From: Nitrospirota bacterium
GTDB lineage: Bacteria > Nitrospinota_A > UBA7883 > JACRGQ01
Direction of reading: 5' to 3'
Assembly (NCBI GenBank): GCA_024275955.1
Contig: JAJRYD010000036.1
Span: forward strand, 1 to 64,000
DNA: 64,000 nt
Positions 13,855-61,970 of the stretch are shown piece by piece. The translations under genes were made by a program, and so were the position numbers. Numbering within the stretch: position 1 is the first letter of the stretch; every line of letters starts with the position of its first letter. The notes beneath the pieces are model-generated. The model made no database searches. It was not told the origin of the DNA and was given only the letters and a program-made list of their open reading frames with translations.

Positions 13855-16800
13855 ATGCTGTTAAGCTGTCCCAAGTGTCGTAGCGGCTACGAAGTTGATA
13901 GTGAGTCAATTCCTAAGGAGGGTACTTACGCCCATTGCACTTCGTGCGAGAATATATTTTTTGTAAAGCACAAAACAACCTCTGGCACTAGCGAAGATAA
14001 GCCTCCCTCCGACAAGCCCGAGCCTTCCCAAACGCTCGGCGAAGAGGGCTCTTTTCCTGATTCTCACGATACCAGCGAAGGCGAAACAATAGCAAAATCC
14101 TTAGAGTCAGATTCGGACGATGGTGACGATTCGGATATTAATGATATCTCTACTAAAGCTTTCTTTTCTGAAGATATTGAAGATGACAAAGAAGATTTTA
14201 GCAGAACTCAGTCACTCTCTGCCCAAGCGGCCGAAGAGGCTTTGGGTGAAACCGAAAAATATATACTTGGAGAGAGAGGCGGTATAGAACCTGATGAGAG
14301 CCTTCAAGACGATACGGGGCAGGAGGAAGCAGAAGTTGAGTATCTTGAGAATGATGTTCTGCTGGAAGCCGATGACGACGATATCCTCATTAGCGATGGC
14401 GGAGATGACGGGCTAGAGGTTGACAGCAGTTTAGATTTTGGCGAAGGGGTAGATGTAGTAGATGAAAATGCGGGAGACGACGATTCTATCAAACTTCTCG
14501 ATTCCCAAATTGGTGAAATAGTACCCGAGGAGGTTTGGACAAAAGATTCTGCTAAAGCCGAACCTGACGACGATGTAATCTTAGAAAACTCCGACGATAA
14601 AATAGTCGAGACCATTCTGCAGGCCGATTCGGACCAGCCGGAGCCTGCCCAAACCGGCTCAGAAGTGTCAAGCTCCTCTGAATCCTCCTCAATGAAACCT
14701 GAGGCAATAAGGGACCCAAGCGATATTGATACTCTTTTCCTTGACGTGCAGGATGCTTTTGATGACGCGGATGAGGAGAACCCGGCCGCCTTAATAGAAA
14801 ACATGGACGATGTAGATGAAACTCCTCAAGAAAGTGTTGTGGAGGAAGAAACTGTTTTGGCTATCGCCCAAACTGTAGATGAAAGCGGGACGAAACAGGC
14901 CGAAGATGAAGCAGTTTCCACAGGTGATGGTTCACCGGCAGTTGAGACTGCCGGCAATAATACCGATAGCGAAGTAGATATCGAAGATATCGGCGCTGTA
15001 GCCGCGGATATTTCGGGTGAAATCGAAGTTGAGGACGGGTCGGAGGAGCTTGACACTAACGAACTGGAGTCAATTTTTGAGAGTGTAAATAACGCCGAAC
15101 CAGAGCCTGTTCCAGACGAATTGATAGATGAAATGCTTAGCGAAGATAAACAAGGTGGAGGTCTGCTCGACGAAATACTCGACGAAGGTTCTGCCGCCGA
15201 GGAGGGTAAAACTTTTGAGGTTCCAGAGCCAATAGATGACGAGGTCGACTCCAAGCTTTTCGGCATTAAGGGTAATGAGGGTACAAGTGTTCTTCCAGAA
15301 GATGCGATCGACTCTGTTCTTCAACATGCCGGTGACGGAAAAAGTGAAGATATCGAATCTGTCTTTGAACCGGGTTCCGATGAAGATGAAGATATTACAA
15401 GCTTTCTAGATGAAACTATGTCCGGCGAAGACGACGATGCGAACTTGCTGGATAGCGACATGGAAGCTATTTTTAGTGAAGGAGAGTTAGAGGCGGCTGT
15501 GCAAAAAGATGGCGTGGAAAAACCTCAAGCACCTGAAAAGCCCAAACCGAATCTTCAAGACGGCATAGATGCTCTTTTTGAGTCAAGCGTCAGTGGGCAG
15601 GAAACCGATGCCGAAAAAGAGGAAACGGTAGGCGACTTGGAGGCTATTGTAGATGCCGGAAGCGAAAAAGCTGTCGACGCGCAAAGCGAGATAGACGCTC
15701 TTTTCGAATCTTCGGCAAAGGAAGCTGAAAAATTACCTCAAGACGATCTCGAGGCATTTATTGACTCCGAGAGCAGTCTAAGCGAATCTTCCGTAGCGGA
15801 TGAAATACTAGGCGGCAATTCAGCTAAAGAGGAGCCTGCAAAAGAAGCGTCTGGTCAGGACGATATAGACGCGATATTTTCTGCCAACGCGCCAGAGGCA
15901 GAAGCGAAAGCAGATGATGGCGGTTCAGCCTCTGGTCAGGACGATATAGACGCGATATTTTCTGCCAACGCACCGGCGACAGAAGCGAAAGCAGATGATG
16001 GCGGTTCAGCCTCTGGTCAGGACGATATAGATGCGATACTTTCTGCCAACGCACCGGCGACAGAAGCGAAAGCAGATGATGGCGGTTCAGCCTCTGGTCA
16101 GGACGATATAGATGCGATATTTTCTGCCAACGCGCCAGAGGCAGAAGCGAAAGCAGATAATAGTGGTTCAGCGTCTGGTCAGGACGATATAGATGCGATA
16201 CTTTCTGCCAACGCGCCAGAGGCAGAAGCGAAAGCAGATGATAGTGGTTCAGCGTCTGGTCAGGACGATATAGACGCGATACTTTCTGCCAACGCACCAG
16301 AGGCAGAAGCGAAAGCAGATGGTAGTGGTTCAGCGTCTGGTCAGGACGATATAGACGCGATACTTTCTGCCAACGCGCCAGAGGCAAAAGCGAAAGCAGA
16401 TGATAGTGGTTCAGCCTCTGGTCAGGACGATATAGACGCGATACTTTCTGCCAACGCGCCAGAGGCAAAAGCGAAAGCAGACGAACCGCAGGAAGAGGCT
16501 CCTGCTGGAGATGGGTTAGTCTCTCAGGGCGATCTTGATGCTCTTTTTGCATCGGATGACCCTGCAGAGGAGAGTAGCTTGGCCGAAGATACCGCTGGAG
16601 CCGATGGTGCCGATTTAACAGAATCTGTAGGAATCGACACTGGTGATGAGCTGGAGGATCTTCTTTCTGAAACAGTCGATGTAGGTGCTGATGCTGGGTT
16701 GCCTGATGATGAAGCTGGTGTGTCAGTCTCTCAGGATGATCTTGATGCCCTGTTTGAATCCGAAGGTGGCGGGGATGCCGGTTCTAGTCAATCGGAAGAT

Positions 16801-17793
16801 GATGACCTTTTTAGCGAGGATGCCCAAGGGGACGGCGATATAGAATCTCTTATAGGTTCGGAAGCCGATACGGCGGATGAAGGTTCTGGCGAGGATGAGA
16901 GCATAGGCATAGATACTTCCATGCTGGAGTCGCTCGATGATGAACTGGGGGATGAAAAAGAGGCAGAATCTTCAGATGATGTTATGTCAGAAGAAGAGGC
17001 CGCCGCTTTGGTTGATCAAGGTGAAGATGGTGATGGAGAAGCTAAAAAGATAAGCTTCGGCACTCTTTTTTCTGGAAGCAGAAAAAAGAAAGCGGTGATG
17101 GCTGGTGTCGCTCTGTTGCTGGTAGCGCTTGGCGTAACTTTTTTCTACTACAAAGATACCTTTTTGCCTTCCGATAGCGAAGATATAGTTGCTCAAACAG
17201 GTGAGATAGTCGGCACCATAATTGAGCAGCCTGCTGTAATGGACGAACCTCTAGATGAGGCGGGGGAGGCTGTTGCCGAGAAACCAGCGGAATTTGCAGA
17301 AAGCGTTGAAGACGATTTTGCGGTTGTCGATGATGATTTTGTGGCTGTCGATGACGATGTAAAAGCGGAAGCGAAAGTAGCCCCCCAAAAGGAGGCAGGA
17401 AGAACAGCTCAAAAAAATGAGCAGGCAAAAGAGACCGCTTTTGCCCAGACTGGCAAAGCAGATGATGAGACTGTAGATTTTGCGGAAGGTAAAGATGTGA
17501 AGTTTGGGATAATAGTACCTGTCGATTACAATGCTCAGGCAGTTAGAGTAATGACAGCCGATGTAATGATAACCTTTAAAAGCTCGCAGGAGCGTGTTTC
17601 TGCCGAGAAGAAAAGGTTTTTATATGAAATGGCTATTGAAGACGAAATAGAAAAGTTTTTTCTGGAAAAATTTTATGAAGATACCCATTACGTTCAGGAC
17701 AAAATAATCGCCGACCTTAACAGCAAGTTTAAAAAGCGCCGCGATATGGGGAAAATTGCTGAAATAGATATTCAGAACTTCAAGCTTCGTTAA
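13855..17793 (+). CDS. 1312-aa hyper-acidic protein. It has an N-terminal MJ0042/AgmX-type zinc ribbon (CxxC-x19-CxxC), about 1000 aa of D/E-rich low complexity with 8x27-aa tandem repeats, one TM helix and a C-terminal globular domain
   Basis: CPKC-x19-CTSC at residues 5-31. The repeat unit is SGQDDIDAI[FL]SANAPEAEAKADDGGSA. The TM helix is VMAGVALLLVALGVTFFYY, and the C-terminal roughly 200 aa are non-acidic. Confidence 0.8.
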   Translation: MLLSCPKCRSGYEVDSESIPKEGTYAHCTSCENIFFVKHKTTSGTSEDKPPSDKPEPSQTLGEEGSFPDSHDTSEGETIAKSLESDSDDGDDSDINDISTKAFFSEDIEDDKEDFSRTQSLSAQAAEEALGETEKYILGERGGIEPDESLQDDTGQEEAEVEYLENDVLLEADDDDILISDGGDDGLEVDSSLDFGEGVDVVDENAGDDDSIKLLDSQIGEIVPEEVWTKDSAKAEPDDDVILENSDDKIVETILQADSDQPEPAQTGSEVSSSSESSSMKPEAIRDPSDIDTLFLDVQDAFDDADEENPAALIENMDDVDETPQESVVEEETVLAIAQTVDESGTKQAEDEAVSTGDGSPAVETAGNNTDSEVDIEDIGAVAADISGEIEVEDGSEELDTNELESIFESVNNAEPEPVPDELIDEMLSEDKQGGGLLDEILDEGSAAEEGKTFEVPEPIDDEVDSKLFGIKGNEGTSVLPEDAIDSVLQHAGDGKSEDIESVFEPGSDEDEDITSFLDETMSGEDDDANLLDSDMEAIFSEGELEAAVQKDGVEKPQAPEKPKPNLQDGIDALFESSVSGQETDAEKEETVGDLEAIVDAGSEKAVDAQSEIDALFESSAKEAEKLPQDDLEAFIDSESSLSESSVADEILGGNSAKEEPAKEASGQDDIDAIFSANAPEAEAKADDGGSASGQDDIDAIFSANAPATEAKADDGGSASGQDDIDAILSANAPATEAKADDGGSASGQDDIDAIFSANAPEAEAKADNSGSASGQDDIDAILSANAPEAEAKADDSGSASGQDDIDAILSANAPEAEAKADGSGSASGQDDIDAILSANAPEAKAKADDSGSASGQDDIDAILSANAPEAKAKADEPQEEAPAGDGLVSQGDLDALFASDDPAEESSLAEDTAGADGADLTESVGIDTGDELEDLLSETVDVGADAGLPDDEAGVSVSQDDLDALFESEGGGDAGSSQSEDDDLFSEDAQGDGDIESLIGSEADTADEGSGEDESIGIDTSMLESLDDELGDEKEAESSDDVMSEEEAAALVDQGEDGDGEAKKISFGTLFSGSRKKKAVMAGVALLLVALGVTFFYYKDTFLPSDSEDIVAQTGEIVGTIIEQPAVMDEPLDEAGEAVAEKPAEFAESVEDDFAVVDDDFVAVDDDVKAEAKVAPQKEAGRTAQKNEQAKETAFAQTGKADDETVDFAEGKDVKFGIIVPVDYNAQAVRVMTADVMITFKSSQERVSAEKKRFLYEMAIEDEIEKFFLEKFYEDTHYVQDKIIADLNSKFKKRRDMGKIAEIDIQNFKLR
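15850..16497 (+). repeat. Eight near-identical 81-nt tandem repeats inside the CDS
   Basis: Period of 81 nt (tctggtcaggacgatatagacgcgata...), varying at only a few positions. Confidence 0.9.
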
Positions 17794-33955: not shown

Positions 33956-34261
33956 CTACAGAGCGCCGTAAACTGCCAGCGATGACAATGTTTTTCCATC
34001 GGCCATCCCAGCGCCCATGCCGATGGTCATTCCTGTTATCATGCCGAGCATTACAAGCTGAAGCCCGCCAAACATAGTGGAGAAAAGGAGTAGCATAGGG
34101 AATACTATAGCCATTCCAAGAATCATCCCTAGAAGCATCGCTGGGATCATAGGCCACCCGTCGGGAACGGTAAAGCCGGCAAAAACAGCGGCGACGGTAC
34201 CGTAGAGCAGGGCGACTATATAATCAAACATTCTTAGAAGAGCAGTGTTGTCTGGTTCCAT
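33956..34261 (-). CDS. Small glycine-zipper membrane protein (101 aa)
   Basis: Starts at the internal Met MEPDN of the track ORF. Three TM segments rich in GMxxGM repeats. The longer track ORF would overlap rnpB. Confidence 0.4.
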   Translation of the reverse strand: MEPDNTALLRMFDYIVALLYGTVAAVFAGFTVPDGWPMIPAMLLGMILGMAIVFPMLLLFSTMFGGLQLVMLGMITGMTIGMGAGMADGKTLSSLAVYGAL

Positions 34262-34295
34262 CTTCAAGATGATAAACCATTTAAGCGAATAAAAA

Positions 34296-34668
34296 AACGA
34301 AGGCGGACTATAAGCCGGATTCTGTACCCTCAATGGGGCGACGGTCATCCATCTAGCCGATCCGTTGCCGGAACGGTCAAGCAACCAACCCGAAGGTAAA
34401 AGGCGAGCAACCTTCATCCCGTTTAAGGGAAACACCTTCCTATTTGGTCTTGCACCGGGCAGGGTTTACCATGCGACCCGCGTCGCCGCAGGCCCGGTGA
34501 GCTCTTACCTCACCATTTCACCCTTACCTGACAAAAAGTCAGGCGGTATATTTTCTGTGGCACTTTCCCTAGGATTACTCCCGCTCCCCGTTAAGGAGTG
34601 CCGTACTCTGCGGTGTCCGGACTTTCCTCCAGACCTTTAAAAGGCCTGGCAACCGTCCGTCCGCCCTC
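34296..34668 (-). ncRNA. rnpB: RNase P RNA (bacterial type A)
   Basis: The minus strand carries GGAGGAAAGUCCGG..., AGGGUGAAAUGGUGAGGUAAGAGCUCACC, and the 3' ACAGAAUCCGGCUUA. P1 pairs ggcggac with gtccgcc, followed by a U-run. Confidence 0.9.
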
Positions 34669-34675
34669 AGTTTTT

Positions 34676-35392
34676 TTAAACTTTTTCTGTGGCAGGCGAA
34701 TAGAGGAACCTGGTGCATTGAGGACAGTGATGCACCTTTTCGCCCACTCGTATTTCCACCGCCATCTGCTTTCGCACAGTGGTATGACATTCTTCGCAGT
34801 AGCCTTCTTTAAGTTTCGAAATGGCGATGCCATCCCTTGCCGTGGCCAGTTTCTCATACTTGTCGAGGTAGCTTTTTTCCAGAAGTGAAACAGTCTCATT
34901 CCTGAATACTACTAGAGATTCCTTTTCAGCTTTTATCGTATCTATTTCCGCTTCTTTTTCCGCTTTTATGAGGGCGAACTCTTTTTCTTCTTTGGCTACC
35001 TTTTCCTTGTACTCGCCTTCGTCCTTCATGCTTTTCTCTAGGTTTTCCATAATTTCAAGCTGTTCGTCTTCCAGCTTTGAAATCGCCGTTTTCATGTTGT
35101 CGGTCTCTTTTATCGCGGCGGTATATTCTTGGTTGGTTTTTATCTCGTGGAGCTTCGCGTTCGCTTTGCGTATAGCTTCCTCTGTTGCCTCCACATCTTT
35201 TTCCTTTTGCTGTCTTAGCTTTCTGGCATCCTCCAGTTTCTTTTTGTACTCTTCGTACTCGGCCTTCGCCGTGTTTAAGCTTGCGGCAAAGTTTTCGATT
35301 TCAGATGGGAGCCTTTCCAACAGCTCGTCTATTTTGGCTATCTCCCTGTCAGTTCCCTGCAGGCTGACCATTAACTCAAGATTTTTATTCAC
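34676..35392 (-). CDS. COG1579/zf-RING_7 zinc-ribbon coiled-coil protein (partner of Nif3)
   Basis: Long coiled coil, then CEECHTTV...CPQC, which is a C4 zinc ribbon. The adjacency to the Nif3 gene is conserved. Confidence 0.75.
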   Translation of the reverse strand: MNKNLELMVSLQGTDREIAKIDELLERLPSEIENFAASLNTAKAEYEEYKKKLEDARKLRQQKEKDVEATEEAIRKANAKLHEIKTNQEYTAAIKETDNMKTAISKLEDEQLEIMENLEKSMKDEGEYKEKVAKEEKEFALIKAEKEAEIDTIKAEKESLVVFRNETVSLLEKSYLDKYEKLATARDGIAISKLKEGYCEECHTTVRKQMAVEIRVGEKVHHCPQCTRFLYSPATEKV

Positions 35393-35401
35393 TTCAAATT
35401 C

Positions 35402-36172
35402 CTATAAAGTGTGGAAGCTCTCCTCCACATCGAAACCGATGATACTAACCTGTTTTGGCCGTTTTGTCAGACTCTTTTTTAGGTGGGCAACAACCAGCGG
35501 TACCATAGGCCTCTCTGTGCCGCAATGGCCAGCGTCTATTATCGGCACGTCAAGTGCTATCGCTTCAATCCCATTATGGTGCCTAACATCGCCTGTTACA
35601 AGTAGTTGCGCTCCTTTTTTAACCGCTTCGGAAAGCAGGTCGGCGCCTGACCCTGTACAAAGCGCAATTTTCTTTACTTTTTTTGGTTTGCCGTAATGCC
35701 GTACAGAGCAAAGAGAAAGTTTTTTCCTAACGCTCAGGGCAAATGCTTTAGAACCGATAGCTTTCGGCAGTTCGCCGATTCTATATTTAATACCTGACGA
35801 GGTTACGCTCTTTAGTTTTTTAAGTCCTATCATTCCTCCGACGTAATGGTTCAAACCTTTTGGAGCCGAATCGAGGTTGGTATGCATCACAAAAACCGAA
35901 ATTCCGCTTTTCATCAGCCGTTTTATCAGCTTTCCTTTGGCCGATGCTGTATCTATTTTTTTTGTCGGCTCGAATATCGGCGGATGGTGGACGATTATGA
36001 GGTTTGCTTTAGACTTTTCGGCGAGGTCGATAACTTTTTGGGTAACGTCGAGAGCTACCACTATTCCTTTAATCTTTTCCGACGCGTCGCCGATTATCAG
36101 GCCGATGTTGTCCCATTCTGCCGCCAGACGTTTTGGGGCCAACTTTTCGCAAAGGCCGATTATCGACTTCAT
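35402..36172 (-). CDS. Nif3-family dinuclear metal-centre protein (GTP cyclohydrolase 1 type 2 homologue)
   Basis: MKSIIGLCEKLAPKRLAAEWDNIGL is the Nif3 N-terminus. Start taken at this Met rather than the upstream track start. Confidence 0.75.
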   Translation of the reverse strand: MKSIIGLCEKLAPKRLAAEWDNIGLIIGDASEKIKGIVVALDVTQKVIDLAEKSKANLIIVHHPPIFEPTKKIDTASAKGKLIKRLMKSGISVFVMHTNLDSAPKGLNHYVGGMIGLKKLKSVTSSGIKYRIGELPKAIGSKAFALSVRKKLSLCSVRHYGKPKKVKKIALCTGSGADLLSEAVKKGAQLLVTGDVRHHNGIEAIALDVPIIDAGHCGTERPMVPLVVAHLKKSLTKRPKQVSIIGFDVEESFHTL

Positions 36173-36341
36173 GCTAAAGAGTTTAACCGCTTTGGGGGGG
36201 TGTTGGAAGAGCATTAGATAGCTAAACCTGTCTTGGCAAGGGGGGTAGGGTGCTTTGGCCAAGCTTGTATCCGCTCTTGAGTAGACAGCATCGCTTTACT
36301 ATCTCTGCTCCGGCTCTCTACCGTGCTTGCCATGCGCTCTT

Positions 36342-45371: not shown

Positions 45372-45740
45372 TTATTCCATCGCTTTTTGGCGGATGATTT
45401 CCATAGGGTCTATAACGTCTGTAACCCTTATGCCGAACCGCTCGTTGACAACGACAACCTCTCCACGCGCTATAAGAAGCCCGTTGATGAAGATTTCCAT
45501 AGGCTCGCCGACAAGCTTTTAAAGCTCTATGACGTTACCGTCTTGGAGTTTTAGAATCTCTCTTATGCTTGTTTTTGCCCGTCCAAGCTCAGCGTTTAGG
45601 TTTAACGGTATATCTAGGTATTCGTGTAGCTCATCTTGTATTTTCTGGAGAGCCTGTTTTTCTTCGTCGCTTTTCTCGACAATCTGGGTAACTTCGGATT
45701 CTTCATCCTCATCAGGGTTATTATCGAATTCGTCTGCCAT
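45372..45740 (-). pseudogene. fliN-like (SpoA domain) flagellar/T3SS C-ring gene interrupted by one in-frame TAA (codon 74 of 123)
   Basis: The 73-aa track ORF ends ...ELGRAKTSIREILKLQDGNVIEL. After the TAA the same frame continues KLVGEPMEIFINGLLIARGEVVVVNERFGIRVTDVIDPMEIIRQKAME*. This reproduces the FliN C-terminus (cf. E. coli ...[45 protein letters not shown], from memory). Confidence 0.6.
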
Positions 45741-51791: not shown

Positions 51792-52517
51792 TTATGACGC
51801 GAGGCCAAGCGCCATATCTTTGCGGTGTTTTATGTACGACGCGAGCGACTCTTCTGCCGTCTCATCGAGGTGATAATGTTTTACGCCAACGATAAAAGCG
51901 CCGTCAGCTTTTCGATGAACGCTTCGCACTATGCCGGTCATTTTAAGAAGCTTGTTTTCTCCCTCCTCAACCGCCTGTATGAAGTACTCGATCTTGTCGT
52001 CCTCCCTCAGTAAATCCAAGCTGATAGCTATCGAGCAACCGTTTATGCTCAGGTTTTTTACTTTGCCTCTGCCGTAATGCTTTCCGTGCAGGATGGTATT
52101 TTCTCTCTTGTAAAGTGTGACGATGGTGTCGAGGCTGGTTTCAAACCGTTCTTCTGAGCGTTTGAGTTTTTTCTTTTCGCCTTCAGGGAAGGTTAGCAAA
52201 ATACGCGGCATTTTGGCTGTTATGATTTTTACCGGAAATTCTTTAGCCATGCCGCCGCTGGTGATAAGGCGTAGCGAAATAAAGCTGTGTCCGTGATAGA
52301 TACCAAGCAGGTTCTGGTCGATATTATTTACTTTAAAAACCACCAGCTTGCCTGCTTTTAAGCTCTCTACCTTGCCTTTATATTCCCTGTTGTTTGCCGC
52401 CAGCCGTACCTCTTTGGCAAGGCTGATGCGGTTAGCCAGTTCGACGTAGCTGGAGGTTTCTTTCGCCGGCCTTTCCTGCTTTTTTGCCAGATAATTTTCA
52501 CTCAGTTCAATCGCCAT
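51792..52517 (-). CDS. PilZ-domain (c-di-GMP-binding) protein
   Basis: The C-terminal region has a (D/N)xSxxG-like NLSINGCSI and an upstream arginine-rich motif. Confidence 0.6.
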   Translation of the reverse strand: MAIELSENYLAKKQERPAKETSSYVELANRISLAKEVRLAANNREYKGKVESLKAGKLVVFKVNNIDQNLLGIYHGHSFISLRLITSGGMAKEFPVKIITAKMPRILLTFPEGEKKKLKRSEERFETSLDTIVTLYKRENTILHGKHYGRGKVKNLSINGCSIAISLDLLREDDKIEYFIQAVEEGENKLLKMTGIVRSVHRKADGAFIVGVKHYHLDETAEESLASYIKHRKDMALGLAS

Positions 52518-54412: not shown

Positions 54413-56749
54413 CTACTCTTCGCTACCGCTTTTTATAGAGTTGTCTTCTCTTGTTATTATTTTGGTGTTGGGGCATTCTTTGTCTTTGCATTTGAGTTGC
54501 AGAGTTTTTAGGTCTATCGCTTTGGCAAAAACCATGTATGGGCTTCCGCATTCATCGCATTTCATGTCGAACGGTTTTTCCCAGCTGGTAAAGTCGCAAT
54601 CTGGGTAGCCTGTGCATCCGTAAAAGGTGCGCCCCTTTTTTGTTCTGCGCTCCAAAAGCTCGCCGCCGCATCCTTTGGGACATTTTATACCCATAGTAAA
54701 TGGTTTCGTGTTTTTGCACTCGGGGTAGGATGAGCAGGCGATGAACCTGCCGAAGCGTCCGCTTCGTATTATCATATCGCCTGTTTTGCACTTGTCGCAT
54801 TTCTCTCCGGTTTTCTCCGGCTCAGAGGAGGATACAGCCCCGTTTTTCCCTATCTGTTTTGTGGTTTTACATTCCGGGTATCCAGCGCAGGCAAGAAACT
54901 TTCCAAAACGGCCGAACTTGACCACCATATGTTTGCCACATTTATCGCAAATCTCGTCGGAAGATACTTCCGATTTGTAGTTTTTCATATTCTTTTGAGC
55001 CGCTTCAAGAGCTTTGCTGAAAGGCCCGTAGTAGTCGCGCATAAGTTCTATCCAGTCCTTTTTACCTTCCTCTATCTCGTCGAGGTGCTCTTCAAGGCTG
55101 GCGGTAAAGCCGATATCCATAACTTTTGGAAAATGCTCGATAAGAGCATCGGTTATTATTTTGCCAAGTTCAGTAGGGTGGAGTTTGCGGTCAAGAGCTT
55201 CGGCATATTCCCTGTTCTGTATAGTTCCTACTATAGAGGCGTAGGTGCTTGGTCTGCCGATTCCTTTGTCTTCCAGCTCCTTTATAAGTGCCGCCTCGGT
55301 ATAGCGCGGCGGCGGCTGGGTGAAATGCTGTTTGGGAGTTATCTTCTCAAGCTCTATCGCCTCTCCCTCTTTAACATCGGGTATTATGTTTTCCTTCTCT
55401 TTACTGTCTACAGGCTCTTCGTCTTTGTAGACTTTTAGGAAGCCTTCAAACTTTATGTTGGACCCAGTGGCGCGTATGGTGTATTTCCCAGCATTGGTAT
55501 CTACAGTCAGAGTCGAGATAACAGCCGAAACCATCTGGCTCGCCACGAACCGTTTCCAGATTATTTCGTACACCTTATGTTCTTCCGCCGTAAGCCGGTT
55601 TTTTAGAGATTCCGGTGTTCGGTGTACCGATGTCGGGCGGATAGCTTCATGCCCCTCTTGCGCCGATTTCTTTACCTTGTATACATTCGGCTTTTCCGGC
55701 AGAAAATCTTTCCCGATATTGGTTTCTACATATCCTCTTAGCTCGGCGATAGCCTCATCGGCAATTCTGGTGGAATCGGTTCTCATATAGGTAATCAAAC
55801 CTACCGTTTCGCCATCTCCAACATCGACACCCTCGTAAAGCTTTTGGGCAAACCGCATAGTTCTCGATGCCGAATAGCGGAACCTTTGCGAGCAGACCTG
55901 CTGGAGAGTGCTTGTTATGAACGGCGCCGCGGAGTTTCGCTTTTTGTCTTTTCTTGTAACTGCCGCTATAGACAGTTTTTCATTTTTTATTTCGTCAACG
56001 GCAATGCTGGCTTCGGTTTCGTTGTTAAGCTCAAGTTTCTTCCGGTCTATCTGGTGGAGTCTTGCCTCGAAAGGCTCTTCGTTGTCGGGCTTTAAAATAC
56101 ATTTTACCGACCAATATTCTTTTTTGACGAAAGCTTCTATCTCTTTTTCACGCTCTAAGATTATCCGCATAGCGACCGACTGCACACGGCCGGCAGAGAG
56201 GCCGCTTCTTACCTTCTCCCAGAGAAGCGGGCTTAACTTGTACCCAACGATTCTGTCGAGTACCCGTCTTGCCTGTTGTGCGTGAACTCTGTTCAGGTCT
56301 ATTTCGTGCGGATTTTCTATAGCTTCCTGTACAGCTTTTTTTGTTATTTCGTTGAACATTATCCTGTAAATCTTCCCCGGGGCATCAAGTACATCGTAAA
56401 TATGCTGGGCTATCGCTTCGCCCTCTCTATCCGGGTCAGGGGCGAGGAATATTTTCTCGGCTTTTTTTGCCGCCGCTTTCAGGCTCTTTATTATGGGAGC
56501 CTTTCCTTTAATCGTTACAAGCTGTATAGAGAAATCGTTATCGACATCGACACCAAGTTTGCTTTTGGGAAGGTCGCGCACATGACCGACGCTCGATAGC
56601 ACTTCAAAATTCCGGCCAAGATATTTTCTTATCGTCTTCGCCTTCGCCGGCGACTCGACTATTACAAGGCTTTTGCCGCTTTTCTTCGCGCTCGTTTTGG
56701 CCTTTTTTTTCACGCTTTTCTTTTTTGCCGTTTTTTTAGTAACTGCCAT
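54413..56749 (-). CDS. topA: DNA topoisomerase I with C-terminal zinc ribbons
   Basis: TOPRIM IVESPAKAKTI, an active-site Tyr region, and 3-4 C4 zinc ribbons. Start at MAVTKK, 14 codons inside the track ORF. Confidence 0.9.
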   Translation of the reverse strand: MAVTKKTAKKKSVKKKAKTSAKKSGKSLVIVESPAKAKTIRKYLGRNFEVLSSVGHVRDLPKSKLGVDVDNDFSIQLVTIKGKAPIIKSLKAAAKKAEKIFLAPDPDREGEAIAQHIYDVLDAPGKIYRIMFNEITKKAVQEAIENPHEIDLNRVHAQQARRVLDRIVGYKLSPLLWEKVRSGLSAGRVQSVAMRIILEREKEIEAFVKKEYWSVKCILKPDNEEPFEARLHQIDRKKLELNNETEASIAVDEIKNEKLSIAAVTRKDKKRNSAAPFITSTLQQVCSQRFRYSASRTMRFAQKLYEGVDVGDGETVGLITYMRTDSTRIADEAIAELRGYVETNIGKDFLPEKPNVYKVKKSAQEGHEAIRPTSVHRTPESLKNRLTAEEHKVYEIIWKRFVASQMVSAVISTLTVDTNAGKYTIRATGSNIKFEGFLKVYKDEEPVDSKEKENIIPDVKEGEAIELEKITPKQHFTQPPPRYTEAALIKELEDKGIGRPSTYASIVGTIQNREYAEALDRKLHPTELGKIITDALIEHFPKVMDIGFTASLEEHLDEIEEGKKDWIELMRDYYGPFSKALEAAQKNMKNYKSEVSSDEICDKCGKHMVVKFGRFGKFLACAGYPECKTTKQIGKNGAVSSSEPEKTGEKCDKCKTGDMIIRSGRFGRFIACSSYPECKNTKPFTMGIKCPKGCGGELLERRTKKGRTFYGCTGYPDCDFTSWEKPFDMKCDECGSPYMVFAKAIDLKTLQLKCKDKECPNTKIITREDNSIKSGSEE

Positions 56750-56856
56750 AGGGGGAATTGTATAGTGAACTTGTGCTTGTTTTGCAAGCATAAACTTATT
56801 TCTATGACACTTTAGGGCAATAAAAACAAAGCACTATCTAGTTTATTTTTTTCTCA

Positions 56857-58365
56857 TTAAGGGGTGCTGTCAGGCTTGCTTTCCTGTTTTTTCTGTTTCT
56901 TAAGCTGTGGGAACAGTATAACTTCTCTTATCGACTCGTTGTTCGTAAGTAGCATCGTAAGCCTGTCAATTCCTATCCCTTCGCCGCCGGTAGGAGGCAT
57001 GCCGTATTCCAGTGCTCTTACATAGTCTTCATCCATCCATTGCGCTTCGGAGTCGCCGGCATCTTTTAACGCCACCTGTTCTTCGAACCGCCTGTGCTGG
57101 TCTTCCGGGTCGTTAAGCTCGGTATAGGCGTTTGCTATCTCCCTTGCGCCTATCATCAGCTCGAACCGTTCTACCAGCTCAGGGTTGTCATCTTTTTTCT
57201 TGGCGAGTGGAGATAGGGCGAGAGGATAGTCGTATATAAAAGTAGGCTGAATGAGCTTTGGCTCCACGGCAAAGTCGAAAAGTTTTTCCAAAACTTTTGC
57301 GCCATGTTCTGTTTTCTCTGTCTTAACGCCATGCTCCTGCAACCATGCTTTTGCTTTTTCAAAATCGCTTATCACATCTTCGGGGATGCCGCCTATCTTG
57401 AAAAGCGATTCGTGGAAAGTGTACCGCTGGTATTTGCCGCCGAGTTCTATCTCGTTTTCGCCCCATTTTACTTTTGTGGTTCCGCACACATCGATCGCAA
57501 GCTCCGAAAACATCTTCTCCGTAAGCTCCATAAGCGAGTTGTAATCGGCGTACGCCATGTAAAACTCCACCATAGTGAACTCGGGGTTGTGCGATGTAGA
57601 TATCCCTTCGTTGCGGAACGATTTGTTGATTTCGTACACTCTGTCGAAACCGCCTACTATAAGCCGCTTTAGGTACAGTTCCGGCGCTATCCGCAGGTAG
57701 AGATCCATATTAAGAGTGTTGTGGTGCGTTATGAACGGCTTTGCTGTAGCGCCTCCAGGCACTTCCTGCATCATAGGCGTTTCTACTTCGAGGAAATCCA
57801 TCTTTTCCAAAAAACGCCTGATGCCGTTTATTATTTTTGCCCGCTTTTTAAAGGTTTCCCTTACACCTTCGTTTACTATCAGGTCTACATACCTCTGGCG
57901 GAACCTTGTCTCGACATCTTTAAGGCCGTGCCATTTCTCAGGCAATGGCCTTAGCGATTTTGTGAGCAGGGTAACCTTTTTTGCATGTACGGTAAGCTCG
58001 CCGGTTCTGGTTATGAACATAAATCCTTCAACCCCGATGATATCTCCGATATCGAGTTTCTTAATTTCGGCGTAATCTTCGCCGATCTCATCTCTTTTTA
58101 TATAAACCTGCATTTTGCCTTTACCGTCCTGCAGGTGTGCGAACATCGTTTTGCCGTGCCCTCTTTTTGTCATTAACCGACCGGCAATAGTTACTAACGG
58201 TTTTTCTAATTCGAGCTGTTCGGCTGTTTTTTCGCCATGTTTACCCCGTATTTCTGTGCTGTTATCGGTCGGTTTAAAGCGGTTTATATATGGGTTTGGG
58301 CCGTTTTCCCTCAGCTCCCTCAGCCGCTCTCGTCTGCTTTCAATCTGCTCATTTTCCTGAGACAT
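56857..58365 (-). CDS. lysS: Lysyl-tRNA synthetase, class II
   Basis: Class II motifs 1-3 ([10 protein letters not shown]). Start at MSQENEQ with an AAGAGGA SD. Confidence 0.9.
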
Positions 58366-58527
58366 TAAAGTAATTCCTCTTAAAGTCCGATTAAACAAAG
58401 GCGACAGTATAGCCTAATTAGCTCTGCAGTCTGCCTGATATCTCCAGATATGGCGATATTAGTCGCACTTGTATATTTGTGCCTGTATAAATATACTATA
58501 ACCAGAGATGATGAAAGGTATCGTAAC

Positions 58528-58860
58528 ATGCTGAATGTAAGTGTCCAAACAGTTTTGAGTATGAGTAACGCCGCGGAGCGTGTTCAGGCTGTTGCTCAGT
58601 CTGGCTCTACCCTTGCTTCCGAGCAGGCGAAAGAACTTTTGGAAAAACAGCACGAGTTGCGCAAGGAAAAGGTTTTGGAAACTCAAGATATCGAGGAGGC
58701 CAAAATCCGTGAGGAAGACCAGCGTAAAAAGGACCAACAGAAACGCGAAGACACTTCTGAGCAAAAGGAACGGGAAGATGGTGACCCATCTGTTGTTGCC
58801 GAGGCCTCTGCTTCGGTGGGACAGCTTGAGAGTGGTCAGCTTCTCAATATAAAGGTCTAG
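58528..58860 (+). CDS. Hypothetical coiled-coil, highly charged protein (first gene of a 4-gene flagellar-type operon)
   Basis: A GAAAGG SD lies 8 nt upstream of ATG 58528. K/E-rich predicted helix. Confidence 0.4.
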   Translation: MLNVSVQTVLSMSNAAERVQAVAQSGSTLASEQAKELLEKQHELRKEKVLETQDIEEAKIREEDQRKKDQQKREDTSEQKEREDGDPSVVAEASASVGQLESGQLLNIKV

Positions 58861-58884
58861 AGCCTTTTTAGATTTCACAAAAAT

Positions 58885-59346
58885 ATGGGTGGGTGGCTGG
58901 TATTTCAGTTAGCGGTTGACCTGCTCATTTTCTTTGTCCTTGTTTTTCTTATTGTCAAAGGTGTAGCTAAAGATAAGCCGGAAGCGAAAGATATCGGTTT
59001 GATGCTGGACGAAATTAAAAAGGCAACCGAAGAAAACCGGAAACTGGCATCCAAAATAGAAATCGACTTGAAAGAGGCCGGCAACCTTATCGCCGTACAA
59101 GAAGCTGTCCGCAGAAAAAAAGCTACAGCTTCTATTAAAAGACCGGAACAGCTAGACCTCAGCGAGAAGCCGGTTTCGGCAGAGGCTGAACCGCTTCCTC
59201 CTATAAGCGTCTTGAGCGACAGAAAACGGAACGTTAAAACGCTCTATAGGCAAGGGGTTTCAAAAGACGGCATAAGCGAACGGCTTTCTATCCCTCTGCC
59301 TGAAGTAGATCTTATCGTCGCGATGATTGGCGACGAAGATAAATGA
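58885..59346 (+). CDS. Membrane-anchored protein with a C-terminal HTH-like motif (DUF2802-like architecture?)
   Basis: N-terminal TM (LIFFVLVFLIV). The C-terminal LYRQGVSKDGISERLSIPLPEVDLIV resembles a sigma-70 region-4-type HTH. Confidence 0.45.
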   Translation: MGGWLVFQLAVDLLIFFVLVFLIVKGVAKDKPEAKDIGLMLDEIKKATEENRKLASKIEIDLKEAGNLIAVQEAVRRKKATASIKRPEQLDLSEKPVSAEAEPLPPISVLSDRKRNVKTLYRQGVSKDGISERLSIPLPEVDLIVAMIGDEDK

Positions 59347-60434
59347 TCAACCTTTCCGAAGTAGCTCCTTCCATTTTTAAGGCTATCCTCAAGGGAGAAA
59401 CAGGTAAAGTTGAAAGCCGGTTTTCCACTGGCGAGCTAGTACAGGGAAAAGTGATAAAAGCGCTTGGACGGGATGGAGCGGTTGTAAGGCTAAGAGGGCT
59501 TGATCTTATAGCCGCGACAGCAAAACCTTTAGTAAACGGGCAGTCTATATTGGTAAAGGTGGAGCAGGTAAAGCCGCAGTTCCAAGTATCACTTTTGCTC
59601 AACGAAACAGCGGCGCAGGAAAAGAAGGCGGCAATGCTTAGGCTTTATCTTCCGCAGGCTATGCCAGCCGGAAAAATGACAGGAGAGTTGGCAAAACTAG
59701 TAGCTTTACTTCCAAAGTCTCTCTTAAAAGGAACCGAGCTGGATGAAATACTCTCTAAACTTTTGCGTAAAAGCGGGACAGAAAGGGAGGCAGGAAAAAG
59801 CGGCGCCGGAAAAGGCTACGCGAAAGCGGAACAGAGCAACCTGTTAAAGCTTCTTGGTTTTTCGCACGAGTCGGATATAGCAAAAGGTAAGCCGACGGCG
59901 AACCTTAAAAGCGCACTGCTCCTGTTGAAGCAAAATATGGAAAAAATGGGAGAGAAAACCTTCTCTAAATATAGCGAACCGATGGAAAAGGTTACCCGCG
60001 CAATTCAGAATATAGAACTAAAGCAACTGATGAACATTGATGAAAAACTTAAGAACTGGGAGATCCCTTTCTGGAACGGAGAAAAAACAGCTACGGCGAG
60101 GCTGTACGTTAGGCGTGAAAAAAAACAAGGCAAAGAGAAAAATGAAAAAGAGGGCGGGACAGCTGTTTCGCTTATGGTCGAGATGAGCAGGCTCGGCCCT
60201 GTCCGTGTCGAAGCGCGGGTAAAAGGCAAAAAGATTACGGGAGATATCTACATTGGCGATGGAGAAAAGGCCGAGAAGGTTCAGGAGAGTTTGCCGTTGC
60301 TTATTCAAGGCTTGAAAAAGGCAGGTTTTACAGCCAAGTTTCAGGTGCAGACGGCAAAAAGCTATTTTCTTACCGAAAAACTGGAAAAAGAAAGCCCTCC
60401 AGCCGTAAAGGGGCTGTTAAACATAAAGGCTTAA
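59343..60434 (+). CDS. FliK-like hook-length-control-type protein (C-terminal Flg_hook-like domain)
   Basis: The C-terminal 120 aa (ARLYV...VSLMVEMSRLGPVRVEARVKGKKITGDIYIGDGEKAEKVQESLPLLIQGLKKAGF) follow the FliK C-terminal pattern. A 4-nt overlap with the upstream gene. Confidence 0.55.
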   Translation: MINLSEVAPSIFKAILKGETGKVESRFSTGELVQGKVIKALGRDGAVVRLRGLDLIAATAKPLVNGQSILVKVEQVKPQFQVSLLLNETAAQEKKAAMLRLYLPQAMPAGKMTGELAKLVALLPKSLLKGTELDEILSKLLRKSGTEREAGKSGAGKGYAKAEQSNLLKLLGFSHESDIAKGKPTANLKSALLLLKQNMEKMGEKTFSKYSEPMEKVTRAIQNIELKQLMNIDEKLKNWEIPFWNGEKTATARLYVRREKKQGKEKNEKEGGTAVSLMVEMSRLGPVRVEARVKGKKITGDIYIGDGEKAEKVQESLPLLIQGLKKAGFTAKFQVQTAKSYFLTEKLEKESPPAVKGLLNIKA

Positions 60435-60437
60435 AAT

Positions 60438-60722
60438 ATGGGCAACGATAAACGTAAAAAAGCTGTCGCTCTTGGGTACAAAGCGGGGGTCGATACCGCT
60501 CCCAAAGTGCTTGCTAGCGGTGGGGGGCTGGTTGCCGAAAAGGTTATCGCTATAGCGAAGGAACATGGCATACCGATTCATAAAGATTGCGACCTTGTGG
60601 AAGTTCTATCCGGCCTTGACCTAGATGAAGAGATACCGGCCGATCTTTACACAGCGATAGCCGAGATTCTTGCCTTTATCTACAAGTTAAACAAGGATGT
60701 CACAGATAAAATTAATAGATAG
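60438..60722 (+). CDS. FlhB C-terminal-domain-like small protein (EscU/YscU/FlhB family, COG2257; YlqH-like)
   Basis: KAVALGYKAGVDTAPKVLASGGGLVAEKVIAIAKEHGIPIHKD...EIPADLYTAIAEILAFIYKL matches the stand-alone FlhB-C paralogue family. Confidence 0.75.
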   Translation: MGNDKRKKAVALGYKAGVDTAPKVLASGGGLVAEKVIAIAKEHGIPIHKDCDLVEVLSGLDLDEEIPADLYTAIAEILAFIYKLNKDVTDKINR

Positions 60723-60863: not shown

Positions 60864-61970
60864 ATGGAATTTAAGATTAACCAAAAAGAAATTCTGCTCT
60901 GTTTTCAACGGGTTCAAGGCTTTATAAATCTTAAAGGGGCAAATCCTGTTTTAAGCAATGTCCGTATCGAGGCAAAAGGGAGCGGCATAGAGGTATTTGC
61001 GACCGACTACGATGTTGGCCTTAGTGGTTCCTACGAGGCGACTGTCGTCGAAGAAGGTGTTGTGGCGCTTCACGGCAAGATGCTATTTGATATCGTTCGA
61101 CAGCTTCCAGAGGATGAGATAATGTTTAGGTACTCCGGTACCGGCAGGTGCGAAGTTGCCTGCGGCAAGTCAAACTTTAAACTTGCTACCATAGACTCCG
61201 AAGAGTATCCAGAGAACCCCGGCTACCCTGACGAGAAATTAATAACTGTCGATAAATCTATATTCAAAAATATGCTCGATAAAACTATCTATGCCGCCAG
61301 CCAGAACGAATCTCGGATGGCTCTCAATGGCATATATTGCCAGTTTTACCCAAACGCCTTCAAGGTTGTAGCTACCGACGGGCATCGGCTTGCGTATGTA
61401 AGCCGAAGTGTCGATTTTCCGGTAACAGAAACTGTCTCGGTTATAATTCCGAGGAGAGCCGTAATAGAGCTTAAAAAACTTATCGACGAAGACGGCGATG
61501 GAGAGACTCTTGGTATTGTGCGGGCAGATAATAGAATATTCGTAAAAATCGGTTCGCTCCTGTTTTTCTCTAGGGAGGTGGAAGGCTCCTATCCTAATTA
61601 CGATCAGGTAATTCCCTACAAAAACAGCAAAGAAGCGGTAATCGATGTTGAAAGCGTGAAGATGGCTTTACGGAGGGTCTCCACAGTGGCGGCGGAAAAG
61701 TCGAAACTTATAAGCTTCAACTTCAAGCCGGATAAGCTTGAGATATCTTCGGAATCGTCGGAGATTGGTGAAGCGTTTGAAGAGGTTGAAATAGAGTATT
61801 CCGGTGATGTTACAAAAATCGGCCTAAACTCGCAGTACACGCTTGAGACATTAAGCCACATAAACAGCGGGAAAGCTGTTTTAAAGTTTGAAGGGCAAGA
61901 GGACGCGCTGATGGTAAAACCGTCAGACGACGATGACTGTGTCTCGGTTATAATGCCGATGCGTATCTGA
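60864..61970 (+). CDS. dnaN: DNA polymerase III beta sliding clamp
   Basis: 368 aa in three-domain beta-clamp organisation; typical N-terminus MEFKINQKEILL... Confidence 0.85.
   Translation: MEFKINQKEILLCFQRVQGFINLKGANPVLSNVRIEAKGSGIEVFATDYDVGLSGSYEATVVEEGVVALHGKMLFDIVRQLPEDEIMFRYSGTGRCEVACGKSNFKLATIDSEEYPENPGYPDEKLITVDKSIFKNMLDKTIYAASQNESRMALNGIYCQFYPNAFKVVATDGHRLAYVSRSVDFPVTETVSVIIPRRAVIELKKLIDEDGDGETLGIVRADNRIFVKIGSLLFFSREVEGSYPNYDQVIPYKNSKEAVIDVESVKMALRRVSTVAAEKSKLISFNFKPDKLEISSESSEIGEAFEEVEIEYSGDVTKIGLNSQYTLETLSHINSGKAVLKFEGQEDALMVKPSDDDDCVSVIMPMRI

Follow-up and report, generated by a model that had tools for sequence, protein, structure and literature searches.

A conserved operon of FipA-like, FliK2-type and FlhX-type genes outside flagellar clusters in Nitrospinota: a probable variant of an accessory flagellar module

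Why would a bacterium keep a FliK-type gene and a stand-alone FlhB-type gene side by side in a locus that holds no flagellar export apparatus? The question was raised by four tightly packed, co-oriented open reading frames (ORFs), g1 to g4, that span positions 58528-60722 on the forward strand of the window, a 64-kb stretch of DNA (positions 1 to 64,000 of contig JAJRYD010000036.1, assembly GCA_024275955.1) from a bacterium deposited as Nitrospirota and placed in Nitrospinota_A by GTDB. A sequence-only reading had proposed a four-gene operon ending in FliK-like and stand-alone FlhB-C genes, and the ORFs were found exactly where it had placed them. Our analysis showed that the g3-g4 pair matches the known fliK2-flhX/FlhX module and that the locus is a Nitrospinota variant of an accessory flagellar module. 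With moderate confidence, we regard it as a conserved accessory flagellar operon (g1, fipA-like, fliK2, flhX) that works as a switch-tuning module at the flagellar base. The four genes are:

58528-58860, forward strand: g1, 110 amino acids (aa), charged, no known family
58885-59346, forward strand: g2, 153 aa, FipA/FlrD-like, with an N-terminal transmembrane (TM) helix and a C-terminal helix-turn-helix (HTH)-like domain
59343-60434, forward strand: g3, 363 aa, FliK2-type, with a C-terminal T3S4/Flg_hook domain
60438-60722, forward strand: g4, 94 aa, FlhX-type, a soluble paralogue of FlhB_CC, the C-terminal subdomain of FlhB

The g2 and g3 genes overlap by 4 nucleotides (nt; ATGA), and g3 and g4 are separated by 3 nt and lie in the same frame.

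The FlhX-type and FliK2-type proteins

The g4 product matched the last 74 positions of the Pfam family PF01312 (Bac_export_2; 65 bits, profile positions 262-335 of 335) and covered the full TIGR00789 flhB_rel model (1-84 of 84) with 106.6 bits, below the cut-off of 117.35. Residues 9-85 aligned with Salmonella FlhB (residues 274-351) and with the CC chain (chain B) of Aquifex FlhB_C, with PDB E-values of about 1e-10, and the match therefore begins four residues past the N269/P270 autocleavage site. The protein has no TM region, no FlhB_CN part and, as had been read from its sequence, no NPTH, and it carries a short basic N-terminus (MGNDKRKK) instead of the cleavage loop. Judged from these alignments, g4 is a free, soluble copy of the portion of FlhB that is left after autocleavage (FlhB_CC, about 274-351). 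Its residues A21, P22, A75 and L78 align with A286, P287, A341 and L344 of FlhB, which Evans et al. reportedly found in 2013 to line the hydrophobic pocket that docks early substrates. A hydrophobic pocket for early-substrate motifs is a described feature of FlhB_C (PMC8983047).

In being a FlhB C-terminal subdomain that stands alone without a membrane part, g4 resembles FlhX of Helicobacter pylori (HP1575), the TIGR00789 type; YlqH of Bacillus subtilis is another such protein. The name FlhX goes back to Pallen et al. (2005); the H. pylori protein partly replaces FlhB function, as far as this is cited in a study of Pseudomonas putida (bioRxiv 10.1101/2021.08.29.457346). The partial replacement of FlhB is a result for H. 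pylori FlhX and could be extended to g4 only by analogy.

The C-terminus of the g3 product, previously read as following the FliK/Flg_hook pattern, matched PF02120 (Flg_hook) at residues 262-337 by a margin of 0.4 bits (30.2 bits against a cut-off of 29.8). The homologue in locus L014 scored 33.0 bits, and precomputed PF02120 matches were present in 8 of 22 g3 homologues. A search of PDB sequences with the g3 profile gave no significant match, and an exact-sequence look-up of the window's g3 returned no record. In an AF2 model built on 20 homologues (pLDDT 73.8), the first 30 residues were poorly ordered; an OB-like beta domain was predicted at residues 32-84, a helical stretch at 87-230, an alpha/beta T3S4/Flg_hook domain at 236-344 (pLDDT about 85-94) and, at 350-363, a tail without order. 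For the alpha/beta domain, Foldseek ranked 5cuk, the substrate-switch (SS) domain of PscP, first in the PDB (probability 1.00, E 2.5e-3), with an rmsd of 2.5 Å over 67 columns, and the FliK C-terminal structure 2rrl was also matched by the model (probability 0.98). The N-terminal domain matched S1/OB and NfeD-C folds; g3 carries an OB-like domain and a helical bundle in place of the ruler region of FliK. The last six residues of the disordered tail are conserved; a functional need for such a tail is known from Salmonella only. Neither flgD nor flgE was found beside g3 in any locus examined.

An apparent FliK2-FlhX fusion of 450 aa (P0021; L006:4330-4460, GCA_976013705.1) was considered as a sign of interaction and set aside. 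Towards the end of fliK2, a poly-C run is one base short, which shifts the frame and removes the conserved tail. The true tail, SILNVQV*, can still be read in a different frame, and the fusion is probably an assembly error.

A FliK C-terminal-domain gene directly 5' of a small FlhB_CC-like gene is also found in P. putida KT2440, to which the g3-g4 pair was matched by description. There, fliK2-flhX (PP_4328-PP_4329) forms one FliA (sigma-28)-dependent operon at the edge of the flagellar cluster, one gene from the convergent flrD/fipA; a canonical fliK is present as well, within the fliK-fliLMNOPQR-flhB operon, the pair lies apart from the cluster in some pseudomonads, and the function of the pair is "still uncharacterized" (bioRxiv 10.1101/2021.08.29.457346). 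The sequence-only reading had called such pairs functionally unexplained, which goes too far: the P. putida pair has a name and depends on FliA, and H. pylori FlhX partly replaces FlhB. The operon in the window differs from its P. putida counterpart in that the FipA-like gene lies inside it, an extra gene (g1) comes first, the predicted promoter looks sigma-70-like, and flagellar genes are never near. A "flhX-fliK" pair outside the main cluster has also been listed for Nitratiruptor.

The FliK C-terminal domain (FliK_C) and FlhB_C of Salmonella form a substrate-specificity switch that can be compared with the pair. In Salmonella FliK, a folded core (268-352) precedes a disordered tail (353-405); the last five residues, with A405 at the end, matter for switching, and core residues 301-350 are also needed (PMC10965912; PMC6972891). 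The predicted T3S4 domain and disordered tail of g3, and the FlhB_CC fold with a docking pocket predicted for g4, correspond to these parts. Unlike in Salmonella, both partners would be separate cytoplasmic proteins, FlhX lacks the membrane domain, the CN part and the autocleavage site, and FliK2 begins with an OB-like domain rather than a ruler region. A cytoplasmic FliK2 is plausible because non-secreted Salmonella FliK (deletion of residues 2-99) still switches (PMC6972891).

The FipA-like membrane protein

The g2 product was confirmed as a TM protein with an HTH-like C-terminus. A hydrophobic helix at residues 6-24 (mean Kyte-Doolittle 2.9) is followed by a spacer, coiled or charged, that leads to the C-terminal HTH-like DUF2802/DUF6115 domain, a region that matched HTH families weakly. 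DUF6115 was the best Pfam match of the family and was detected in 11 of 11 homologues (best E 6e-8); DUF2802 was detected in eight of the 11 (best E 3.7e-7). PF10975, which the sequence-only reading had named as worth searching, was recovered in the orthologue from a sister clade (L016), which scored above the DUF2802 cut-off (33.8 vs. 33.5 bits) and aligned with the g2 family over its whole length in hhalign (99.6% probability). An exhaustive HMMER search for g2 found 28 relatives at E<=1e-3. Inspection of the 13 weakest showed that all keep the C-terminal G...E..L and that most keep the TM helix and coil (P0049 is an exception).

FipA (synonym FlrD), described only in gammaproteobacteria, is a membrane protein of about 163 aa that has a TM helix, a coiled stretch and a DUF2802 domain; it is a binding partner of FlhF and is required for the polar flagellum to form (PMC11620751, eLife 2024). 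All homologues share its residues G110, E126 and L129, of which G110 and L129 are needed to bind FlhF (PMC11620751). In the 11 g2 sequences, G124, E140 and L143 are invariant, and their spacing (G-x15-E-x2-L, or +16/+19) equals that of G110/E126/L129 when compared with the residue positions published for Vibrio parahaemolyticus FipA. The two proteins are also alike in overall build: g2 has about 150 aa, and its short N-terminus leads into a single TM helix, a coiled region and the C-terminal domain with the G, E and L residues. They differ in gene position: fipA directly follows the flhA-flhF-flhG-fliA-che operon, whereas g2 is the second gene of a detached operon.

A "TM + HTH" protein of the same architecture, assigned to DUF6115, adjoins the sigma-28/FlhF/FlhG sub-modules of flagellar superoperons in spirochaetes and Firmicutes (PMC11607428), and the DUF6115 match of g2 fits this protein. 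Unlike g2, these genes lie inside the superoperon beside the genes for sigma-28, FapA, FlhF and FlhG. On sequence grounds, g2 probably belongs to the DUF2802/DUF6115 "TM + HTH" group that includes FipA/FlrD.

A terminal peptide shared by the first and third proteins

The g1 product is charged, as the sequence-only reading had said (35% D/E/K/R overall), and 73% of residues 31-86 are D/E/K/R/Q. No family match was found in Pfam or NCBIfam. Sixty homologues have lengths of 105-115 aa, and the few that are named come from Nitrospinota/Nitrospinae metagenome-assembled genomes (MAGs), one "Nitrospirae bacterium" and one unclassified bacterium. Their N-terminus is conserved (M-Q-x-x-G-L-Q-T-V-L-Q-M-S-N-x-x-E-R) and their middle is charged and of low complexity. 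One further database (NCBI-type) copy, P0064, has 136 aa because it is called from the ATG at 58450. This long start is probably an over-extension because the 60 homologues align from the ATG at 58528; a start at 58450 would also take in the predicted promoter.

The g1 proteins end in [QH]-G-x-[LIM]-[LI]-[ND]-[IV]-[KV]-[VAI]-COOH (60 homologues) and the g3 proteins in L-[LF]-[ND]-[VLI]-[KR]-[AV]-COOH (20 homologues). The consensus tail common to both is ΦΦ(N/D)Φ(K/R/V)(A/V), with an N or D at position -4 that is invariant in both sets. The g3 product has the full FliK_C layout and g1 carries the terminal peptide only. The position of the peptide matches that of the terminal residues on which switching by Salmonella FliK depends. 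No description of this shared peptide was found in the searchable literature. Neither the peptide nor the relation of g2 to FipA/FlrD had been noticed in the sequence-only reading, which is incomplete in both respects. A GRM-like FxxxΦ motif in g1 was also considered; it reads QFKDII in some homologues and QAKELL, without the F, in the window, and was set aside as not conserved.

Conservation across Nitrospinota

The order g1, g2, g3, g4 recurred in at least 13 independent Nitrospinota loci from two clades, with changing neighbours. Relatives of g3 are rare (22 in 5.8 billion clusters), and those with names are from Nitrospinota MAGs. When one genome per GTDB species was scanned, six loci were recovered, all in Nitrospinota or Nitrospinales, and a second, more distant clade was reached through g1 homologues. 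In one clade the operon diverges from lysS and in the other from fusA, and the genes downstream vary. No flagellar structural or export genes were present in the flanks of the related loci, up to 10 kb on each side. A broken distal end of a flagellar cluster, raised earlier as a possible trivial explanation, does not fit an operon that stands alone by lysS or fusA throughout these loci.

All four genes are under purifying selection. In pairwise, unsaturated comparisons, dN/dS was 0.14-0.29 for g1, 0.17-0.25 for g2, 0.08-0.11 for g3 and 0.02-0.06 for g4. Because gene order is kept and dN/dS is low, the operon is a functional unit kept across the phylum and neither a relic nor a broken cluster end.

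Two kinds of neighbour recurred in part of the collection. In the second clade (L007, L016 and L017), a FimV_N and SPOR protein, which resembles the FimV/HubP polar landmark, is encoded a few genes from the operon (about 3.3-6.1 kb in each locus), and in L007 and L018 a gene for a small PilZ protein adjoins the operon downstream of flhX. These neighbours may hint at a connection to the cell pole or to c-di-GMP, or may be coincidence.

Promoter and genomic surroundings

Upstream of g1, a search for sigma-28 and sigma-54 motifs found no convincing sigma-28 site and no sigma-54 site. The candidate that was found and the genes and ORFs that bear on the position of the operon are:

58469-58497, forward strand: putative sigma-70-type promoter (TTGTAT, 17-nt spacer, TATACT), predicted from sequence
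56857-58398, opposite to the operon: lysS, the upstream neighbour
54413-56791, opposite to the operon: topA, upstream
60864-61970, downstream of the operon: dnaN (TIGR00663, 302.6 bits)
45372-45740, reverse strand: FliN-like ORF (Pfam FliMN_C, 85 bits when read through), adjoining DUF1844-rpoZ-dksA

The promoter candidate in the window is weak; the equivalent site in the relatives is near consensus (TTGAC[CG]-N17-TA[TA]A[CA]T). The operon appears to be read from this predicted housekeeping-type promoter. In the lysS-g1 intergenic region (window 58380-58440 and its equivalents in seven related loci) there is an invariant CCGAT, with AAGTATAGC about 12 nt further on. The CCGAT, about 110-130 nt 5' of g1, resembles the sigma-28 -10 element GCCGATAA on the forward strand, and a sigma-28 promoter was considered there and rejected. 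The CCGAT is more simply part of the lysS leader because it is aligned between the lysS -10 box (TATACT, minus strand) and the lysS ribosome-binding site.

The spacing between g4 and dnaN is 141 nt, and the spacer holds promoter-like sites of its own. The dnaN gene is solitary in the part of the window examined, with no dnaA, recF or gyrB beside it, in agreement with the earlier remark that it is not next to dnaA; mdh is convergent downstream. DnaA-box matches (17 vs. 10.7±3.2 expected) were not clustered, the changes in GC and AT skew track gene orientation, and a replication origin near dnaN was rejected. The sequence-only reading had found the position upstream of dnaN unusual. Among the loci recovered, dnaN lies 3' of the operon only in the window, and the adjacency is without functional meaning because it is unique to the window and because the DnaA boxes are not enriched. 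The gene after flhX differs in related Nitrospinota loci, so the position of dnaN is best seen as a lineage-specific rearrangement.

Pfam searches with about 40 large ORFs from the whole window detected housekeeping, envelope and signalling genes and no flagellar or type III secretion system (T3SS) export gene, which upholds the earlier description of the operon as detached from the export apparatus. Elsewhere in the window the sole flagellar-type gene is the FliN-like ORF, which has an in-frame TAA at 45519-45521. The TAA replaces an Asp of the homologue in a related Nitrospinota MAG (L001:1626-1994), in which the FliN-DUF1844-rpoZ-dksA arrangement is kept. The interrupted ORF could be a pseudogene, a sequencing error or a case of read-through.

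Four other features of the window were recorded. A bacterial RNase P RNA of class A (Rfam, 319.5 bits) lies at 34295-34668 on the reverse strand, and a 159-aa ORF at 33956-34435 is probably spurious because it overlaps this RNA and has no Pfam match. At 34676-35392 and 35402-36262, both on the reverse strand, a CT398/HP0958-type protein with a coiled-coil hairpin and a zinc ribbon is encoded beside NIF3; in Helicobacter and Chlamydia, proteins of this family bind RpoN and components of the flagellum or the T3SS. A 1312-aa ORF (13855-17793, forward strand) has an N-terminal Zn_ribbon_4 zinc ribbon as its only Pfam match, and a 241-aa PilZ protein is encoded at 51792-52517.

A possible role at the flagellar base

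The preferred reading of the locus, as an accessory operon that tunes the export switch, presumes a flagellum. Flagellar assembly and chemotaxis genes have been reported for Nitrospinae (PMC5029188), as have FliO and FlgV, the latter found only inside flagellar superoperons, and FlhF and FlhG are implied beside FlgV in the superoperons of phyla that include Nitrospinae (PMC11607428). The suggestion that such pairs occur even in non-flagellated genomes is therefore a poor fit to this phylum, for which assembly genes, FlgV and FliO are all on record.

The mechanism that we propose would run as follows. FliK2 would bind FlhX through its T3S4 domain and tail, by analogy with the binding of FlhB_C by FliK_C, and the FipA-like protein would hold the FliK2/FlhX pair at the membrane, at a nascent, FlhF-marked flagellar base. 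FlhX might then replace the export gate's FlhB_CC or compete with it, as its H. pylori counterpart can, and its action would tune the timing of the switch from rod and hook to filament. Through its identical tail, g1 would compete with FliK2 for the same site and could act as a modulator or a secreted sensor.

Several observations weigh against this proposal. The predicted promoter looks sigma-70-like and not sigma-28-like as in Pseudomonas, and the only flagellar-type gene in the window besides the operon, the FliN-like ORF, has an in-frame stop. The g2 protein of the window falls under the Pfam cut-offs (DUF6115, 19.7 bits vs. 27; no DUF2802 match at E<=1), and we call it FipA-like rather than a proven member because it is below both. 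The g2 gene is absent from L008 and L014, so it is not obligatory. An AF2 chimera of g3 and g4, with only two sequences for the g4 part, gave g4 a pLDDT of 25-55 and did not resolve the docking. Motility has never been seen in cultured Nitrospina (PMC5029188), and FlhA, FlhB, FlhF and a separate canonical FliK are ascribed to this organism by analogy from the literature on the phylum.

A bolder form of the proposal, which we consider unlikely, concerns the docking itself. FlhX may be regarded as FlhB_C without the beta-strand that is supplied by CN, and the boundary between g3 and g4 coincides with the FlhB autocleavage position. The terminal peptide of g1 or FliK2 could then dock as a detachable strand or plug, the two proteins competing for one slot, and perhaps also dock on the gate's own FlhB_CC.

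Could g3 instead be the sole hook-length ruler, a true fliK that has moved out of its cluster, is secreted and acts on the FlhB_C of the gate, with FlhX and g1 as minor helpers or secreted substrates? The size of about 350 aa, the T3S4 domain and the FliK-like terminal tail are those expected of a FliK, the poorly ordered first 30 residues of the model could be an export signal, and the case for a second FliK in these genomes could not be made. A compact OB-like domain and helical bundle, however, occupy the place where FliK has its ruler region, g3 is always coupled to flhX and never to flgD or flgE, and Pseudomonas fliK2 coexists with a canonical fliK. We judge the sole-ruler explanation improbable.

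Recruitment of the operon to a non-flagellar task, such as the organisation of the pole or the division site, would make the FlhB_CC/T3S4 pair simply an interaction module. The constant separation from flagellar genes, the housekeeping-like promoter, the FimV_N/SPOR and PilZ genes near the operon in the second clade, the lack of observed motility in Nitrospina and the interrupted FliN-like gene are all compatible with such a task. Yet every recognisable domain is from a flagellar or T3SS family, the FlhB pocket residues and the FipA residues for FlhF binding are conserved, and the neighbours differ between the clades and so give no consistent non-flagellar signal. The phylum, moreover, has been reported with flagellar superoperons that carry FlgV. 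We think recruitment quite improbable.

The last alternative, that the genes are decaying leftovers of a flagellar system since lost or that the similarity is due to chance or annotation, could appeal to the slim Flg_hook margin, the TIGR00789 score under the cut-off and the interrupted FliN-like gene, but it is largely refuted and essentially excluded by the dN/dS values of 0.02-0.29 across four intact ORFs, the order conserved in the Nitrospinota loci, a T3S4 fold match that is independent of the sequence match and the FlhB_C matches in PDB.

Significance

FlhX and FliK2 are widespread, and the Nitrospinota loci make the question of their role more testable. The only known role of FipA is to bring FlhF to the site of a new flagellum, and co-translation of FliK2 and FlhX with a FipA-type protein links the spare switch pair to flagellar placement. 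The strict separation from flagellar clusters, together with the housekeeping-type promoter, suggests a regulatory rather than a structural role. The tail shared by g1, a previously undescribed small protein, and FliK2 points to a defined peptide-docking interaction that can be tested by assay. If the strand or plug form of docking is true, the operon would encode a membrane-tethered switch of three proteins that works by competition and sets export specificity from the cytoplasm, with no need for a secreted ruler, and the essential role of the last five residues of canonical FliK would be accounted for. If docking does not occur, the locus would be one more known accessory operon; if it does, the operon would supply a mechanism for a part of flagellar export that has long been a loose end.

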